A stretch of DNA of 31,461 nt from a virus (IMGVR_UViG_2778261696_000004:1-31461), one strand, 5' to 3'. Numbered from the stretch's first letter, positions 14,239-18,956 are shown. Translations and numbers: made by a program. Notes: a model not told the origin generated them from the sequence alone.

Positions 14239-14255
14239 AGATTTATTAGAGCAAT
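14239..14255 (-). promoter_or_regulatory. C1 operator (ATTGCTCTAATAAATCT, 16/17)
   Basis: Near-perfect 17-mer upstream of the peptide / 121-aa / 120-aa operon. Confidence 0.7.
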
Positions 14256-14761
14256 TATTGTTGATGAAGAAGCGCATTTTCATACTCCCTGACCATGAAT
14301 GTAAGTACGCCGTGACTCCTGAAAATACGCGCCACTTCAATCTTATCTTCCAGCGCGAACGCGATTTTACTTAGACCAATTTTCTTAAGGAGATCAATCT
14401 TTGCTGGGCCGTCATTTCTGTCATCGGTGGCAGGACGCATAGATAGCAAAGGCTCAGCCCCGTTTGTTACGTACTTCCGCAGCCAGGCTCGTGTTTTATC
14501 CCTTGCGATCTCACAGCGCCCAGTTACAAACCAGACCGTGTAAACGTTAAATAACTGGCGCACCATATCAATAACTGGAGTGATGGGTGTATCGGTGTCA
14601 CAGGCGAGATTAAACTCGTTCCAGTCCTTTGTTAATGCACCTTTACCTGGTGGCGGAAGCAAATGCAGTCTGTCTTCAGTTGCCTCTGATATTGTTCCAT
14701 CAATATCGACTATGACGATATACGGACGTTCCTGGTGTGCGTGTTTATTGAAAATACTCAA
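14255..14761 (-). CDS. HAD-superfamily phosphatase-like protein, 168 aa
   Basis: N-terminal DxDGT motif (IVIVDIDGTIS) typical of HAD phosphatases / polynucleotide 3'-phosphatases. Confidence 0.55.
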   Translation of the reverse strand: MSIFNKHAHQERPYIVIVDIDGTISEATEDRLHLLPPPGKGALTKDWNEFNLACDTDTPITPVIDMVRQLFNVYTVWFVTGRCEIARDKTRAWLRKYVTNGAEPLLSMRPATDDRNDGPAKIDLLKKIGLSKIAFALEDKIEVARIFRSHGVLTFMVREYENALLHQQ

Positions 14762-14833
14762 ATGCCCTCCTCATTGGACGAAAAAAATGCTGGTGGGCGC
14801 ACTCCACCAGCATTAAAAGTGACACTGTAACTA

Positions 14834-16096
14834 TCAGCGAACGTAAATAGTGCCGCCGTTCTCTTTTTCCCATGCATCGCTACGTGCATAGCAAACATCG
14901 AGAAGTCTTCTTGCCGCTGTTTCCTCTAAACCCAATTCGACAACCAACTGCTCATGACGGCGGGTAACCACATCAAACAGGGTATGCAGCCCTTTAGCTG
15001 CCAGATCATCAATAAATTCCGGTTCGAACGGCAGCTCTGCATCTGCCAACATAACCTCTTGCGCCCACTCAACTCGACGGACCAGTTCCGGGCGGCGGCT
15101 TTCCATCTCTTTACAGATCAATTCATGGAAGAACTCTACCCAACCTTCCGGCTGGAACTCGCGGAAAATGGCCAACGGCTGGAAGTTTGGCATCAACCAT
15201 TCGTTGATCCGGATATCAATGGCATAGCCCATGTCGCAGCAGAACTGATAAGCAAAGTCCAGCTTAGAAACGATATAAGGACGCTCGTTATTGAACTCTT
15301 TAGGCGATGAGATCCCATAAGCCAGGAGGCGCGGGAAGAATGAGATTTGCCCTAACGTCGGATGGAGTTTGCTTGCAGGGAAACGGCGCTCAGTAATGCC
15401 ATACATTTCCTTCTTGAGCGTCGCAAATTTGGCGTTTTCATTAACCAGCTCGGTAACCTCTGCTTTCTTATTAGCAAATGCCACGCGCGCCTCGCTTGCA
15501 TCTTTAATAGCCTTTTTGAGCTGTTGGTTAAGGTCGACAATCTGCTTACGCAGTTCCTGTCGCTCGCTTTTGGCTTTGTTATAGCGTTTCTCAAGGTTAA
15601 AAGGATCAAGTTTCATGATCTCTTTATATTGAGATTTTAGAGTTGAAATCTGTGAGTTCCGCAGCACAACCATCGCGGTCATTTCATTGAGTTTTGTTTC
15701 CAGCTCAATGCTTATACGTTCGGCATTATCAGCACGCTGGTTGGCGTCATGCGTCGCATCTTCGATCGCGTCCTGTTGCTGGCGTTTCAAATGTTCAATT
15801 TCCAGCTGAAGCTCTTCAATTTCTTTACCCTTCAGACCGAGATCCAACTGCATATTTTCAGCTGCATCTACCAGGGAGTTATGGCTATCAGCTTCTGCGT
15901 TATAAACATCAATAAGCTGTGCGTGAAGCATCTCCGCTGACTGAACCGCATTATCAAAAAAACGCGCTGTGAGGTCATCACAACTAACGCGGCGTTGCGC
16001 GGCTCGGATGTTCTGGATAATGGCCGGGATACCGGCATTCAGGACGTCAGGGATAGATACATTTTCGATTGATTGGTTTTGTGCTGAAGTGCTCAT
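14834..16096 (-). CDS. hypothetical protein, 420 aa, N-terminal coiled coil
   Basis: Long ORF; heptad-rich 100-230 region; no catalytic motif recognised. Confidence 0.5.
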   Translation of the reverse strand: MSTSAQNQSIENVSIPDVLNAGIPAIIQNIRAAQRRVSCDDLTARFFDNAVQSAEMLHAQLIDVYNAEADSHNSLVDAAENMQLDLGLKGKEIEELQLEIEHLKRQQQDAIEDATHDANQRADNAERISIELETKLNEMTAMVVLRNSQISTLKSQYKEIMKLDPFNLEKRYNKAKSERQELRKQIVDLNQQLKKAIKDASEARVAFANKKAEVTELVNENAKFATLKKEMYGITERRFPASKLHPTLGQISFFPRLLAYGISSPKEFNNERPYIVSKLDFAYQFCCDMGYAIDIRINEWLMPNFQPLAIFREFQPEGWVEFFHELICKEMESRRPELVRRVEWAQEVMLADAELPFEPEFIDDLAAKGLHTLFDVVTRRHEQLVVELGLEETAARRLLDVCYARSDAWEKENGGTIYVR

Positions 16097-16097
16097 T

Positions 16098-16396: not shown

Positions 16397-16397
16397 A

Positions 16398-17099
16398 TTA
16401 TTCTGATTCTCGCTCAAAAAACGAGCTGATAAGGGGAAGCCAATCCTCTGACACTTCGCGAGGTCGCGGTTTGCCGTGGAAAAAGATTATTCGGCAGTCT
16501 TTTGGTAATGCCCCATTCCCCCTGGAGTAACGCGCGCTCGCATATTTTGAACCAGGTTCCACAACATCGGCCTTGTAACTTACAAACCATCCTGGATACA
16601 GATCCTGAAATGCTGGTGTATCATCGCCCATAACCTTTCGTAAGAACCCCTGGTCACCCCAGCACTCAGTAGTGACACAACGAGAAATCCAACCTTCCGG
16701 ATCTTGCCAGAATGAACTCCAGATATGCGCTTTAACACTATTTGGTATCCACAGGGCACCGCTGCCACGATATTGTGGATGGTAAAAATCCCTAAGCATG
16801 GTGAAGCTGGTTGGTGGATGCTCTAGGATTGGGCGTATATCACCGGCAATAACCGTGTCCAAATCCAGATAGAACAGATCATCGGTTATATCCGGTCGGA
16901 ACAACTCGATTTTCGCCCACCAGCCACGGCACTTTTGCCACTGGTTGATCAATGGGACAACTTTGACGCCAGGTACATGTAAACGCTTCAGGTCTGTCAG
17001 GCAAATAATTTCATAGCCTTTTGGCAGTTGATTAACCAGCCACTGCACATCGGAAGCGTTATAGTCACCACCAGAGCGAAAAACTAAAGCAATCTTCAT
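16398..17099 (-). CDS. hypothetical protein with DxD-like motif (FYLDLDTVI), possible GT-A-type glycosyltransferase, 233 aa
   Basis: DLD motif after a hydrophobic strand is reminiscent of nucleotide-sugar transferases. Weak, motif-level only. Confidence 0.35.
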
Positions 17100-17788
17100 G
17101 CTGCACCATCACCTTTCACTTTCATCAATGTCAGGTTTCCGCAAAATACGGCACCAGTGTCGATATACTGCTGATTCCAGAATGTCTTCGGGCTTTTCAC
17201 CGGAGTGTGACCAAAGATAAAACGATCTGCGCCCGAAATTTCGCCACCAATATCATCCATCGAATCACTGATACGCTCGCGCGCCCAGACAACGTTGAAA
17301 AGCGGCACCTCCTTACCGAATTGGTATTCATTATCCGGATAGTCGGCATGGGCTATAACGATAGTTTCTTGCCCGGTGTTCAACTCAATGATATAGGGCA
17401 GACGCTTTACCAGCTCCACCAGCGCCCAAGCTAATATTTCCTGATCAGTGTCCAGCATGAAGAACCATTGTCCGCCATTCATTAGCCAGTTATTCACGTT
17501 GCCATCAGGACTTAACGCATCGAGCATCAACCGCTCATGGTTCCCCATCACTGCCCTGAACCAGGGCATCTGCAATAGTTCCAGACATTCGACATTTTCA
17601 GTACCGCGATCGATAAGGTCGCCGACCGATATCAGTAAATCCTGCGCCGGGTCAAAATCCACACGATGGAGTTCGGACATCAGTCTGGTGTAGCAACCAT
17701 GCAGATCACCAACAACCCAGACATTCCTGTATTTGGTACCGTCGATACGGTGATAAATTGTGGGTGCCATCATGTATTCTTCAGCCAT
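17096..17788 (-). CDS. ppp: Ser/Thr protein phosphatase, lambda-PPase-like metallophosphoesterase
   Basis: GDLHG, GDLIDRG and GNHE motifs in canonical order and spacing; 230 aa. P1 encodes such a phosphatase (ppp). Confidence 0.85.
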
Positions 17789-18396
17789 TCTTTAAGAGTC
17801 ATCTGCGGAATACCTCCCATTTTCCCGCATGAAACAACGTCAATCTGTTCACGCGCAGACTGGAATAACAAAGGCAGGTGACTTAGATTTTTTGGCGTGC
17901 CGCCGGAGTGAACGCGTAGTTCTTGCGTAGCGTCAACGCCCACCAGAGCTACATGTTTGAATCCGATATGGAAAGCCAGGTTCAGAGCACCATATGCACT
18001 ATTGCCGCTGGCAATTTCATTCTCATCTTCGCAAAGGCCGAAATGTGCGGACCAGCGCCACGCCCACCACTCGGGAGAATTCGTATTTTTTGGCTCCATG
18101 CCGCGTTCAGCCACACGACGGAAGCACAGAACGCCATCTCTGACTTCACGTTCTTTAACATCGGGTAGTGCCATGCAATAACAAACACCACGGCGACGGC
18201 GGCCACGACCAACGCGCCGCATATTGTCTGGGGATGGATCAAGGGTGAAAAAATAAGAAGCGCGGTTAAGCCAGTCGATGGCCCCATTGACCGCTATAAT
18301 CGGCACTCCGCGCGGCGCAACAAAGTTTGCGGCGCTTGGGCCACTGCCGACGATAATAACGCGATCACTGCCTCTAAATTTATTCTTGGGAAACAT
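17770..18396 (-). CDS. GSGPS-motif protein (possible DUF115/MptE-like Rossmann fold), paralog 1, 208 aa
   Basis: N-terminal IIVGSGPS…IAVN motif shared with the adjacent paralog. Family assignment from memory of the motif only. Confidence 0.35.
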
Positions 18397-18956
18397 TGAA
18401 TTGCACTGCTCCTACTTGCATTCAAAATATGTAAATCTGCGTGTTTTTTGCGGGTATCCAGGAACTGCTGTTGCCATTTTGAAATAGACACCTGCGTTGG
18501 ATTCCGTAGTGCTTGAGGGTGCGCGCCATGCCAATGAAGGCCGTTTTGCAGAGAACAGTCATAGCCGACTAATACCACTACTTCAGCCCCTGATTCAGCA
18601 GCCAGACTGATAGCCTGCGCGCCGCTATTTACCCCTTCCGCCGGTCCACAATATCGCCTGTACTCCAACGAAAATGATTTCGCCGCCGCCAGGTTGGCTG
18701 TCACTTTGCGGAACCTCCCTCCCGGTATGGTGGAACCGTATTGCTTCCACCATGACAAATCACCGGCGTATAAGGCATAAATGTCATCGAACATCTGCCA
18801 GGAATTGTTAACCGCGATGATTGAACAGCCAGTTTTTTCTATAGCAGCACAGTCCTCACGAGTGAGTGACGGACCGCTACCGACACAAAAAACAGTCCTA
18901 GTCGCCCTGGGTGGTATGTTCATTCTCAGCTGCAAATTCAGCCTCCAGGCGAGCAT
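18294..18956 (-). CDS. GSGPS-motif protein, paralog 2, 220 aa
   Basis: FCVGSGPS…IIAVN motif. Its 3' end overlaps the start of paralog 1 by about 100 nt. Confidence 0.35.
   Translation of the reverse strand: MLAWRLNLQLRMNIPPRATRTVFCVGSGPSLTREDCAAIEKTGCSIIAVNNSWQMFDDIYALYAGDLSWWKQYGSTIPGGRFRKVTANLAAAKSFSLEYRRYCGPAEGVNSGAQAISLAAESGAEVVVLVGYDCSLQNGLHWHGAHPQALRNPTQVSISKWQQQFLDTRKKHADLHILNASRSSAIQCFPRINLEAVIALLSSAVAQAPQTLLRRAECRL

Follow-up and report, generated by a model that had tools for sequence, protein, structure and literature searches.

Gene content and regulation of the locus

Do the genes between positions 14239 and 18956 of this viral DNA form a functional unit and, if so, on what would their products act? 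The window, by which we mean the whole stretch of 31,461 nucleotides that was analysed, comes from a P1-like phage with 98.5% DNA identity to P1. An earlier interpretation made without database searches (hereafter the sequence-only reading) had described a cluster of modification-type enzymes on one strand. The strand assignment was correct, as pap, pmgS, pmgR, pmgQ, ppp, pmgP and pmgO are all minus-strand open reading frames (ORFs) that match annotated P1 genes. The features of the region are as follows.

14239-14255, minus strand: Op88 (OpmgT), a C1 operator directly 3' of pap, identical to the annotated P1 operator
14255-14761, minus strand: pap, stand-alone HAD phosphatase of the PNKP type, outside the conserved module
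14834-16096, minus strand: pmgS, coiled-coil protein of 420 aa, outside the conserved module
16098-16316, minus strand: pmgR, with a knockout phenotype in PMC9024508
16331-16396, no strand assigned: C1 operators Op86b and Op86a plus promoter PpmgR, each matching its P1 annotation without a mismatch
16398-17099, minus strand: pmgQ, predicted GT8-like retaining GT-A glycosyltransferase, core module
17096-17788, minus strand: ppp, predicted lambda-type Ser/Thr phosphatase
17770-18396, minus strand: pmgP, DUF115/MptE-like (Maf/sialyltransferase-like) protein, paralogue of PmgO, core module
18294-18956, minus strand: pmgO, DUF115/MptE-like protein, core module
18898-19053, minus strand: pmgN, small ORF heading the operon, annotated in P1
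19097-19113, plus strand: Op83 (Oppp), C1 operator controlling the pmgN-pmgO-pmgP-ppp-pmgQ operon, zero mismatches to P1
20004-20053, no strand assigned: C1 operator Op82 and late promoter LPpmgL, 5' of pmgL and pointing toward the module, zero mismatches to P1
24891-25889, minus strand: dbn, probable GT-B (GT4-like) glycosyltransferase, detached module member

The Op86b/Op86a/PpmgR segment separates the pmgN-pmgQ operon from pmgR-pmgS-pap. Both the C1 operators and the late promoter are intact in this phage, and because the module lies downstream of LPpmgL and of C1-repressed promoters, it should be switched on in the lytic cycle and stay silent in the lysogen. Within the operon, ppp overlaps pmgQ by 4 nt and pmgP by 19 nt, and is predicted to be translationally coupled to pmgQ in P1. 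No family match was obtained for pmgN, nor for pmgR in Pfam. A small ORF also precedes the DUF115 gene in phage D3 and in T7-like contigs.

Predicted folds of the module proteins

The two proteins with a GSGPS motif, PmgO and PmgP (residue 17 in PmgP), had been proposed to be paralogous. Pairwise BLAST between them was barely significant (E = 0.004); despite this marginal score, profile-profile comparison of the two families with hhalign gave a probability of 97.9% (E = 3.8e-13, 160 columns), which identifies them as distant paralogues. Both show the DUF115/MptE-like family fold, which is also common to pyrophosphokinases. Their matches to PF01973 (DUF115/MptE-like) cover only the C-terminal part and, at 23.4 bits for PmgO and 20.9 bits for PmgP, lie below the Pfam gathering cut-off of 34.6; many of their homologues carry a precomputed PF01973 match. 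The closest solved structure for PmgO is the Maf flagellin glycosyltransferase (5mu5, 16% identity), and RefSeq and PHROG apply the label 'alpha-2,3-sialyltransferase' (GT42 / GT29 sialyltransferases). In P0092, a PmgP-like domain is fused to a PmgO-like domain.

PmgQ is the DxD-motif protein for which a GT-A fold had been suggested, and the structural comparison bore this out. Foldseek searches of the PDB with its AlphaFold model (pLDDT 94.2) returned Gat1 (6mw5), glycogenin, LgtC and GlyE as best matches. The top 50 matches, all with a probability of 1.00, were almost entirely GT8 enzymes (6mw5, glycogenin, LgtC, GlyE and 3tzt) or GT8-like catalytic domains (WbbM, LARGE1, UGGT and xyloside xylosyltransferase). 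At the profile level, the PmgQ family reached 6mw5 in the PDB at E = 1.5e-6, the sole significant route to GT8. No Pfam family, Glyco_transf_8 included, was matched up to E = 0.1, and PmgQ is classed here as GT8-like rather than as a curated family member. The protein has one DLD, at residues 79–81, and D79, L80 and D81 as well as H208, G209, P211 and P213 are invariant among 25 homologues. In a HMMER alignment to glycogenin, the DLD falls on D-x-D and H-G-K-P-R-P falls on H-F-x-G-x-x-K-P-W. The model and these alignments point to a GT8-type enzyme with a GT-A fold, in which the DxD and a C-terminal His are predicted metal ligands.

The GT-B-like gene said to lie 6 kb away beside ban is dbn, which was placed correctly: it abuts ban, near which the P1 tRNA genes are located, at 5.9 kb from pmgO. 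Its class assignment is likely rather than proven, since Dbn scores 25.0 bits against Glycos_transf_1, under the cut-off of 26.4. An E-x7-E motif spans residues 248–256, with E248 and E256 invariant in the family. Only 5 of 38 family members reach Glycos_transf_1 at E = 1e-3, and the family profile matches the GT-B structure 8xsg at E = 2e-4 over just 41 residues. Dbn is thus a probable GT-B (GT4-like) glycosyltransferase. For every module protein the 19-residue Kyte-Doolittle mean stayed below 1.6 (maximum ≤ 1.53), and with no predicted membrane segments PmgO, PmgP, PmgQ and Dbn appear soluble.

A module conserved across unrelated phages

The grouping of pmgO, pmgP, pmgQ and dbn is beyond chance, as these genes co-occur in unrelated phages. 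Of 18 loci that a PmgP-seeded search of GTDB provided, 15 had a PmgQ homologue and 14 had one of PmgO, in hosts that include Enterobacterales, Zhongshania, Methylophilaceae, Brevundimonas, Sinomicrobium (Bacteroidota) and Longimicrobiales. When diverse viral contigs were seeded with distant PmgQ homologues, a DUF115 gene lay at most five genes away in 54 of 80. Natural fusions that join PmgQ to a PmgO-like protein occur in L112 and L166. The detached dbn belongs with the other three, to which it is linked in four non-P1 contexts: homologues of Dbn lie between O-like and Q-like genes in L112, adjoin a PmgQ-like gene in E. coli phage EP_H11, and are found near PmgO-like/PmgQ-like genes in L004 and L019. 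FkbM and class I methyltransferases, more GT-A-like genes and a possible sulfotransferase recur next to the module, and these sugar-type neighbours suggest that it has a glycan-building character. The four genes are hence predicted to constitute one conserved module of soluble glycosyltransferases, the first three of which travel jointly across several bacterial phyla.

The remaining genes of the region are P1-lineage neighbours and not module members; among the PmgP-seeded loci, pap, ppp and pmgS were confined to P1-like phages. The sugar toolkit of the sequence-only reading accordingly survives for the four module genes and loses Pap and Ppp, both of which it had classified correctly. Pap matches the Pfam family HAD_PNKP (PF25109) at 46.3 bits, above the cut-off of 27.6 (E = 6e-12), as well as phrog_415 (E = 8e-57), and has a DIDGT motif, of the DxDGT nucleophile type, at residue 19. 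Its best PDB match is the phosphatase domain of Pnkp1 (4xrp, E = 0.001). By these matches Pap is predicted to be of the polynucleotide 3'-phosphatase type rather than a sugar-phosphate phosphatase. Ppp aligns with lambda phosphatase (1g5b) at E = 2.8e-94 over 219 residues, contains GDLHG, GDLIDRG and GNHE, scores 59 bits against Pfam Metallophos, and by these similarities is assigned as a lambda phosphatase homologue. PmgS gave weak coiled-coil-type matches only and falls in phrog_1660, 'PmgS-like head morphogenesis'; pmgR, next after pmgQ in P1, is a head-completion gene (PMC9024508).

Genomic setting and the likely acceptor

We next considered where the module lies in other phages. Among viral loci with at least three upstream genes, 26 of 57 had a recognised major capsid gene at most three non-module genes upstream, a lower bound that depends on simple ORF calling and clustering and includes related contigs; after de-replication at 60% identity, 9 of 32 clusters retained this adjacency. 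It occurs in two unrelated architectures, a T7-like order (scaffold, MCP, small ORF, DUF115, GT8, tail tubular A, tail tubular B) and an HK97-like order (MCP, O, Q, head-tail connector). Phage D3 has its PmgO homologue, orf7, flanked by the genes for major head protein and head-tail adaptor, and the P7 record labels the module genes 'head morphogenesis'. The frequent adjacency to capsid genes suggests that the module may put sugars on virus particles.

Our preferred but tentative reading, to which we give a probability of roughly 0.4, is a late-expressed protein-glycosylation module that most likely acts on virion proteins. PmgQ, as an Mn2+-type GT8 enzyme, would be a retaining transferase that takes a hexose from a UDP-sugar donor. 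PmgO and PmgP, as diverged copies of a Maf/sialyltransferase-like (DUF115) fold, would probably act as a pair and, by analogy, may use an acidic CMP-activated sugar; to our knowledge, CMP-Kdo is the only such donor in E. coli K-12. Dbn would add a further sugar. The acceptor is most likely a virion, probably a head, protein, in which case the product would be glycosylated particles. The module genes are dispensable for plaque formation (PMC9024508), which fits an accessory modification.

Several observations speak against a virion acceptor or suit other roles. In P1 itself, the module is not adjacent to a capsid gene. It lies between lysis genes and terminase in the lambdoid phage phiNP, its neighbours in L021 are an exonuclease and ribonucleotide reductase, and Chlobot has a solitary PmgQ-like gene by int and tail-fibre genes, a typical lysogenic-conversion position. 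We found no report of a glycan on P1 virions, and glycosylation goes unmentioned in the main text of the paper on the P1 virion proteome.

Alternative targets and activities

In the main rival explanation, which is possible but less likely, the module alters a glycan of the host envelope (LPS core, O antigen or ECA) while infection proceeds. Addition of Kdo or hexose, for example, could mask or truncate the outer-core glucose that serves as the P1 receptor, and the benefit would be less superinfection or less progeny loss on cell debris. The LPS-core enzymes of E. coli argue for this explanation and against a virion acceptor: in a database of 14 E. coli K-12 waa proteins, WaaZ alone fell below E = 0.01 with the PmgO (9e-5) and PmgP (1.4e-5) profiles, and WaaJ was matched by the PmgQ profile at 8.8e-7. 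A PmgO-PmgP fusion carries a precomputed 'WaaZ_KDO_III' match marked as faint, and the LOS enzyme LgtC is among the fold matches of PmgQ. GT8, GT4-like and sialyltransferase-like enzymes are also the classes that assemble LPS/LOS cores, and the positions in Chlobot and phiNP resemble those of conversion morons. However, C1 repression would silence the P1 module in the lysogen, where conversion pays, and new LPS would probably displace little of the existing surface in one lytic cycle. The space between capsid and connector genes, where the module is frequently inserted in T7-like and HK97-like phages, is likewise not the usual site of conversion genes, and the PmgQ profile scores the protein-glycan enzyme Gat1 (31 bits) above WaaJ (18.5 bits).

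It is improbable that the module instead glycosylates a host cytoplasmic or surface protein (flagellin, for instance, as Maf does) in host takeover or counter-defence. Such a target would suit the relationship of PmgO to Maf, the action of the PmgQ relatives Gat1, glycogenin and GlyE on proteins or protein-bound glycans, and the apparent solubility of the module proteins. PmgO and PmgP, however, are minimal catalytic domains of ~200 aa without the extra domains of Maf, which are thought to bind flagellin, and PADLOC returned no match for the module. Hosts ranging from Bacteroidota to Gemmatimonadota argue against one conserved host target, and the location in a structural-gene cluster points to a phage-encoded acceptor. 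We regard it as similarly improbable that the DUF115 proteins are not glycosyltransferases at all. They would then be nucleotide-dependent pyrophosphokinases, of which MptE and thiamine pyrophosphokinase are examples, or virion-associated proteins with no catalytic role, and their grouping with PmgQ would reflect something besides glycan assembly. The fold shared with pyrophosphokinases and the sub-threshold Pfam scores of PmgO and PmgP weigh against the virion reading.

Least probable by our estimate is the nucleoside target, in DNA or tRNA, of the sequence-only reading, by which the enzymes would attach a sugar to virion DNA or to tRNA of phage or host, aided by Pap and Ppp. GT-B enzymes glucosylate phage DNA in T4, Pap is of the polynucleotide-phosphatase type, the P1 tRNAs lie near ban, and L021 has nucleic-acid enzymes next to its module. 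Against this, contextual support is almost absent: the usual home of the module is a head-morphogenesis, lysis or late operon, and only 1 of ~90 contexts is a DNA-metabolism region. No acceptor-base enzyme (hmC, hmU) was found among the genes examined, conservation of the module does not extend to Pap and Ppp, and the enzymes related by fold have proteins or glycolipids as acceptors; proteins or LPS are what the closest solved relatives glycosylate. P1 DNA is also routinely cut and cloned, and we know of no reported hypermodification.

Comparison with known systems

PmgQ shares with GT8 enzymes (Gat1, glycogenin, LgtC, GlyE, WaaJ/WaaO) the predicted GT-A fold, the DxD, profile-level similarity and a C-terminal His in an H-x-x-G-x-x-K/R-P segment. 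It differs from them in its low identity (12–17%), its shorter length (233 aa) and its membership of a phage-borne family of its own, phrog_1962, with at least 570 viral-contig matches. Compared with Maf (PF01973, 5mu5), a protein of 632 aa, PmgO and PmgP are two diverged and in places fused paralogues that score under the Pfam cut-off. WaaZ, which adds KdoIII to the LPS inner core in E. coli K-12, resembles them in an N-terminal segment with S-G-P and A-V-N-G and in a G-x-D strand, a weak likeness (12–14 bits, hhalign probability 12–21%), and unlike the proposed PmgO/PmgP activity it acts on lipid A-core.

GtrABC, which glucosylates O antigen in lysogenic conversion, and the T4 DNA glucosyltransferases are, like the P1 module, phage-encoded sugar-transfer systems dispensable in laboratory growth. 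Gtr systems rely on membrane proteins, a bactoprenol-linked sugar and prophage expression, whereas the P1 module lacks the membrane flippase and glycosyltransferase pairing of Gtr-type conversion, has no predicted membrane segments and has C1 operators upstream of its operons. The T4 enzymes require hmC DNA, and no hmC pathway was present among the P1 genes examined.

The nearest parallel to our preferred reading, virion-protein glycosylation, is found in the mycobacteriophages Che8, Corndog and Myrna, whose virions are glycosylated (Freeman et al, 2023, as described in PMC11256854 and PMC12363180), a trait that these accounts call unusual among phages. The P1 set (DUF115 pair, GT8 and GT-B-like enzyme), known from sequence and fold, is set beside Che8 gp110 and Corndog gp38 by description, and its hosts, unlike those of the mycobacteriophage systems, are Gram-negative. 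As described in those accounts, the latter resemble the module proposed for P1 in being phage-encoded, non-essential accessory glycosyltransferases, and theirs modify capsid proteins.

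A conserved unit of four genes

The genes considered here occupy two places in the window:

14255-18956, minus strand: pap, pmgS, pmgR, pmgQ, ppp, pmgP and pmgO, ORFs matching P1 genes
24891-25889: dbn, abutting ban

Homologous loci elsewhere carry L-numbers. A PmgP-seeded search took one genome per species, the flanks being scanned for all ten P1 proteins. A PmgQ homologue was found in 15 of 18 such loci and a PmgO homologue in 14, in hosts ranging from Enterobacterales to Zhongshania, Methylophilaceae, Brevundimonas, Sinomicrobium and Longimicrobiales. Among viral contigs the complete PmgQ alignment brought up nothing but near-identical P1-like ones. 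With distant PmgQ homologues alone as seeds, the scan gave at least 570 matches, 80 of which were kept; a gene of the DUF115 type (PF01973), which PmgO and PmgP resemble, lay within five genes in 54 of these 80 viral loci, a count that takes in a third DUF115 subfamily, kin to PmgO and PmgP at 96% hhalign probability. Several loci encode fusions:

L003, 9962-11131: PmgO+PmgP (protein P0092), followed by a PmgQ homologue
L112, 9992-11257: PmgQ+PmgO-like (DUF115)
L166, 1962-3239: PmgQ+DUF115
L179, 1358-3703: methyltransferase+unknown domain+PmgQ
L135, 3755-5578: PmgO-like+unknown domain+PmgQ

Serratia (L004) and Buttiauxella (L019) each have a Dbn homologue (38-39% identity) in the vicinity of the module; another sits directly between the O-like and Q-like genes of L112, and in E. 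coli phage EP_H11, where an O-like gene comes first, a further one immediately precedes the Q-like gene. On the strength of co-occurrence, fusions and Dbn neighbourhoods, the real unit is therefore pmgO, pmgP, pmgQ and dbn.

The sequence-only reading had tentatively grouped these genes with two phosphatases as one sugar-nucleotide modification toolkit. What stands of this is a conserved, probably glycosyltransferase, module, pmgO/pmgP/pmgQ with dbn, whereas the phosphatases are unrelated to it: Ppp and Pap, like PmgS, PmgR, PmgM and PmgL, were confined to 3 P1-like loci among the 18 PmgP-seeded loci. Both enzymes had themselves been recognised correctly. Pap, the HAD phosphatase, scores 46.3 bits against the Pfam HAD_PNKP cut-off of 27.6, carries the nucleophile motif DIDGT and resembles the phosphatase domain of Pnkp1; it is accordingly classed by homology with phosphatases of the polynucleotide-end type, not the sugar-phosphate type. 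Ppp, the lambda-type Ser/Thr phosphatase, has the full set of metal-binding motifs and is, judged by its match (E 2.8e-94), a close homologue of lambda phosphatase. A functional partnership of ppp or pap with the module was rejected, since neither occurs in any of the non-P1 contexts examined. In the P1 lineage ppp has been inserted between pmgP and pmgQ, and pap is a gene of the next operon.

PADLOC returned nothing beyond coiled-coil noise on PmgS (14834-16096). Weak matches of PmgS to SMC and to the defence protein LmuB are limited to coiled-coil residues 55-230 and are probably composition-driven.

Fold assignments of the module proteins

PmgQ matches no Pfam family. Across 25 aligned homologues, W60-W61-x-K63, D79-L-D81-T, G148-D149, S174-Y-K176 and H208-G-x-P-x-P are invariant. 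The best match of its profile was the GT8 enzyme Gat1 (6mw5, E 1.5e-6), followed by GlyE and glycogenins, and the structural matches of its AlphaFold model (pLDDT 94.2) were almost exclusively GT8 enzymes, which bears out the earlier suspicion, raised by the DxD motif (D79-L-D81), of a GT-A protein. Since the GT8 metal-site residues are present, PmgQ would be expected to use a UDP-hexose donor with a retaining mechanism.

PmgO and PmgP both carry the motif GSGPS and have hardly any pairwise similarity; their family profiles align over 160 columns (97.9% probability, E 3.8e-13, with the fusion P0092 left out of the PmgO alignment), so that the paralogy first proposed from the shared motif holds. 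The structure model of PmgO was built on PmgO alone, not on the fusion. As single sequences PmgO, PmgP and Dbn found no usable match in the PDB, nor did the PmgP profile find any there, and the module proteins had no NCBIfam match. That PmgO and PmgP act as a pair is suggested by their fusion and strict adjacency. Their donor would be a CMP-activated ulosonic acid, as used by the glycosyltransferase members of this fold; in E. coli K-12 we take the obvious one to be CMP-Kdo. PmgO and PmgP show a weak, specific resemblance to WaaZ, which is compatible with CMP-Kdo as donor.

Dbn scores just under the Glycos_transf_1 cut-off, and its family profile meets GT-B enzymes solely around the invariant E-x7-E motif. 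The expectation of a GT-B-like gene beside ban thus holds for position and motif, while the sub-threshold score leaves Dbn as a likely GT-B enzyme.

No membrane segments were predicted in the four module proteins, and Gtr-like membrane chemistry was rejected for want of hydrophobic segments. We put the probability that the module is a glycosyltransferase set at roughly 85%.

Transcriptional organisation

The region is 98.5% identical to phage P1 (NC_005856, 79592-84293), and other P1-like phages (P7, SJ46, RCS47) match it at 98-99%. The C1 repressor operators Op82, Op83, Op86a/b and Op88 and the late promoter LPpmgL, upstream of pmgL, occur in the window with zero mismatches to the annotated P1 elements. 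Between Op83 and Op86, pmgN, pmgO, pmgP, ppp and pmgQ are closely packed as a single unit, with successive overlaps of 59, 103, 19 and 4 nt.

A scan with the 17-bp C1 operator consensus, allowing up to 3 mismatches, gave 13 matches in the window against 0.15 expected by chance, among them 1383, 2944, 3027, 6160, 14239, 16331, 16380, 20004 and 29866; the more diverged Op83 (19097) was missed. Two nearby genes called "putative morphogenetic" have no obvious morphogenetic role: pmgM (19120-19698) resembles a VRR-NUC nuclease (phrog_5702 "Holliday junction resolvase", E 5e-27) and pmgL (19701-19946) a DksA-like zinc-finger protein. Most PmgO homologues begin about 10-20 residues inside the window ORF (18294-18956), the PmgO model being disordered before residue 20, and most Dbn homologues begin at Dbn residue 9 (ORF 24891-25889), the start of the long dbn ORF overlapping the ban stop codon by 1 nt. 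Given these later starts and the disorder in PmgO, the true starts may be internal, at M12 of PmgO and M9 of Dbn.

Neighbourhoods in other phages

Recurrent neighbours of the module fall into two groups. The first, enzymes of glycan tailoring, comprises FkbM-type and class I methyltransferases, extra GT-A-like proteins and a possible sulfotransferase, and the second head-morphogenesis genes. T7-like contigs have the order portal, scaffold, major capsid, 92-aa ORF, DUF115, GT8, tail tubular A and tail tubular B; HK97-like phages have protease/capsid, the PmgO-like gene, the PmgQ-like gene and head-tail connectors; and in phage D3 the PmgO homologue orf7 lies between the major head protein and head-tail adaptor genes. 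A recognised capsid gene was found at most 3 non-module genes upstream in 26 of the 57 viral loci with at least 3 upstream genes (9 of 32 clusters once the loci were de-replicated at 60% identity). The count is a lower bound, as capsid genes could be recognised only where they belonged to recurrent clusters. Chance placement in a phage genome of some 50 genes would, by our own estimate, produce such adjacency in roughly 5%. Elsewhere the module lies inside or after the lysis cassette (L019, L004, phiNP) or beside DNA-metabolism genes (L021). No recurrent nucleotide-sugar biosynthesis gene was recognised among neighbour clusters present in at least 4 loci, so the donor sugar is not readable from context.

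Among the head-tail genes of D3 (L188 7694-9089; orf12, orf13) and PAJU2, a few genes after the PmgO homologue, stand a methyltransferase and a 275-aa protein with a "GLGD" N-terminus. By sequence inspection only, the latter is read as GT9-like, and the set resembles a glycan module of variant composition, built with another partner enzyme. Escherichia phage Chlobot (L186 6001-6720) carries a PmgQ-like gene (35% identity) on its own, no DUF115 partner accompanying it, between integrase and tail-fibre genes. This is a typical lysogenic-conversion position, and the acceptors of GT8-like PmgQ family members may therefore differ between phages.

Depositors labelled the PmgO homologues of PAJU2 (ORF010, L189 4974-5543) and Klebsiella phage Eowyn (LR881104 2336-2872) "structural protein"; if these labels rest on virion mass spectrometry, the DUF115 protein may travel with the particles. 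A small ORF stands directly 5' of the DUF115 gene in three unrelated layouts:

Window, 18898-19053: pmgN
L188, 5637-5924: D3 orf6.5
L154, 7038-7316: the 92-aa ORF of a T7-like contig, 26% Ser+Thr

Its role might be that of acceptor, decoration protein or helper. For pmgN, plating is reduced by CRISPRi and not by deletion.

Possible targets and significance

We tentatively place the target of the module in the virion, a virion protein accepting the sugars that the module would make. This reading draws on lytic-cycle expression, notably from LPpmgL, on the capsid-adjacent position in many phages, and on pmgR, a head-completion gene (PMC9024508), which adjoins the module in P1. Knockouts and CRISPRi knockdowns of pmgO, pmgP, pmgQ, ppp, pap, pmgS and dbn leave plaque formation unimpaired, which fits an accessory modification. 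Remodelling of LPS or envelope is less likely and is the main rival; if the module did rewrite LPS in lytic growth, the phage would be dealing with its own receptor in a novel manner. Glycosylation of a host protein, a non-glycosyltransferase role of the DUF115 proteins and modification of nucleic acid share the remaining probability. Because P1 single-gene knockout methods exist, a virion or LPS outcome is directly testable.

Somewhat doubtful is the wider proposal that the DUF115+GT8 pair is a widespread, so far unrecognised capsid/virion glycosylation system of phages of Gram-negative bacteria, represented in P1 by pmgO/pmgP/pmgQ/dbn. The pair would often be accompanied by a GT-B-like gene and sugar methyltransferases and be inserted beside the major capsid gene in T7-like and HK97-like phages, D3 included; on this view a glycan of phage origin, possibly with Kdo, would decorate P1 particles. 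The module as a whole is best regarded as a lead of moderate interest, open to test, rather than as a new system already demonstrated.

The fold-level assignments have precedents: in RefSeq and PHROGs pmgQ is labelled "glycosyltransferase" and pmgO "alpha-2,3-sialyltransferase". In the P7 record the genes go under "head morphogenesis". The literature searched yielded no functional study of pmgO, pmgP, pmgQ or dbn beyond their dispensability. Nor did any paper there describe the module as a conserved set, its fusions or its place beside the capsid gene, or report glycosylated virions for a phage of a Gram-negative host; in its main text the P1 structure paper does not name the module genes. P1 is among the most used phages in genetics, and these genes are still named "putative morphogenetic". 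Glycosylation of virions by the module would help to explain the place of such genes inside head-gene clusters, provide a gene signature for spotting such phages in metagenomes, and be relevant to phage therapy (antibody recognition, clearance) and P1-based delivery vectors.

Phage-encoded enzymes are known to glycosylate virions in mycobacteriophages, where this is called unusual (PMC11256854, PMC12363180), and in the searchable literature covalent glycosylation of phage particles is established only there. The P1-type module would differ in both enzyme set and hosts, and, should it glycosylate virions, would extend the phenomenon to phages of Gram-negative bacteria.
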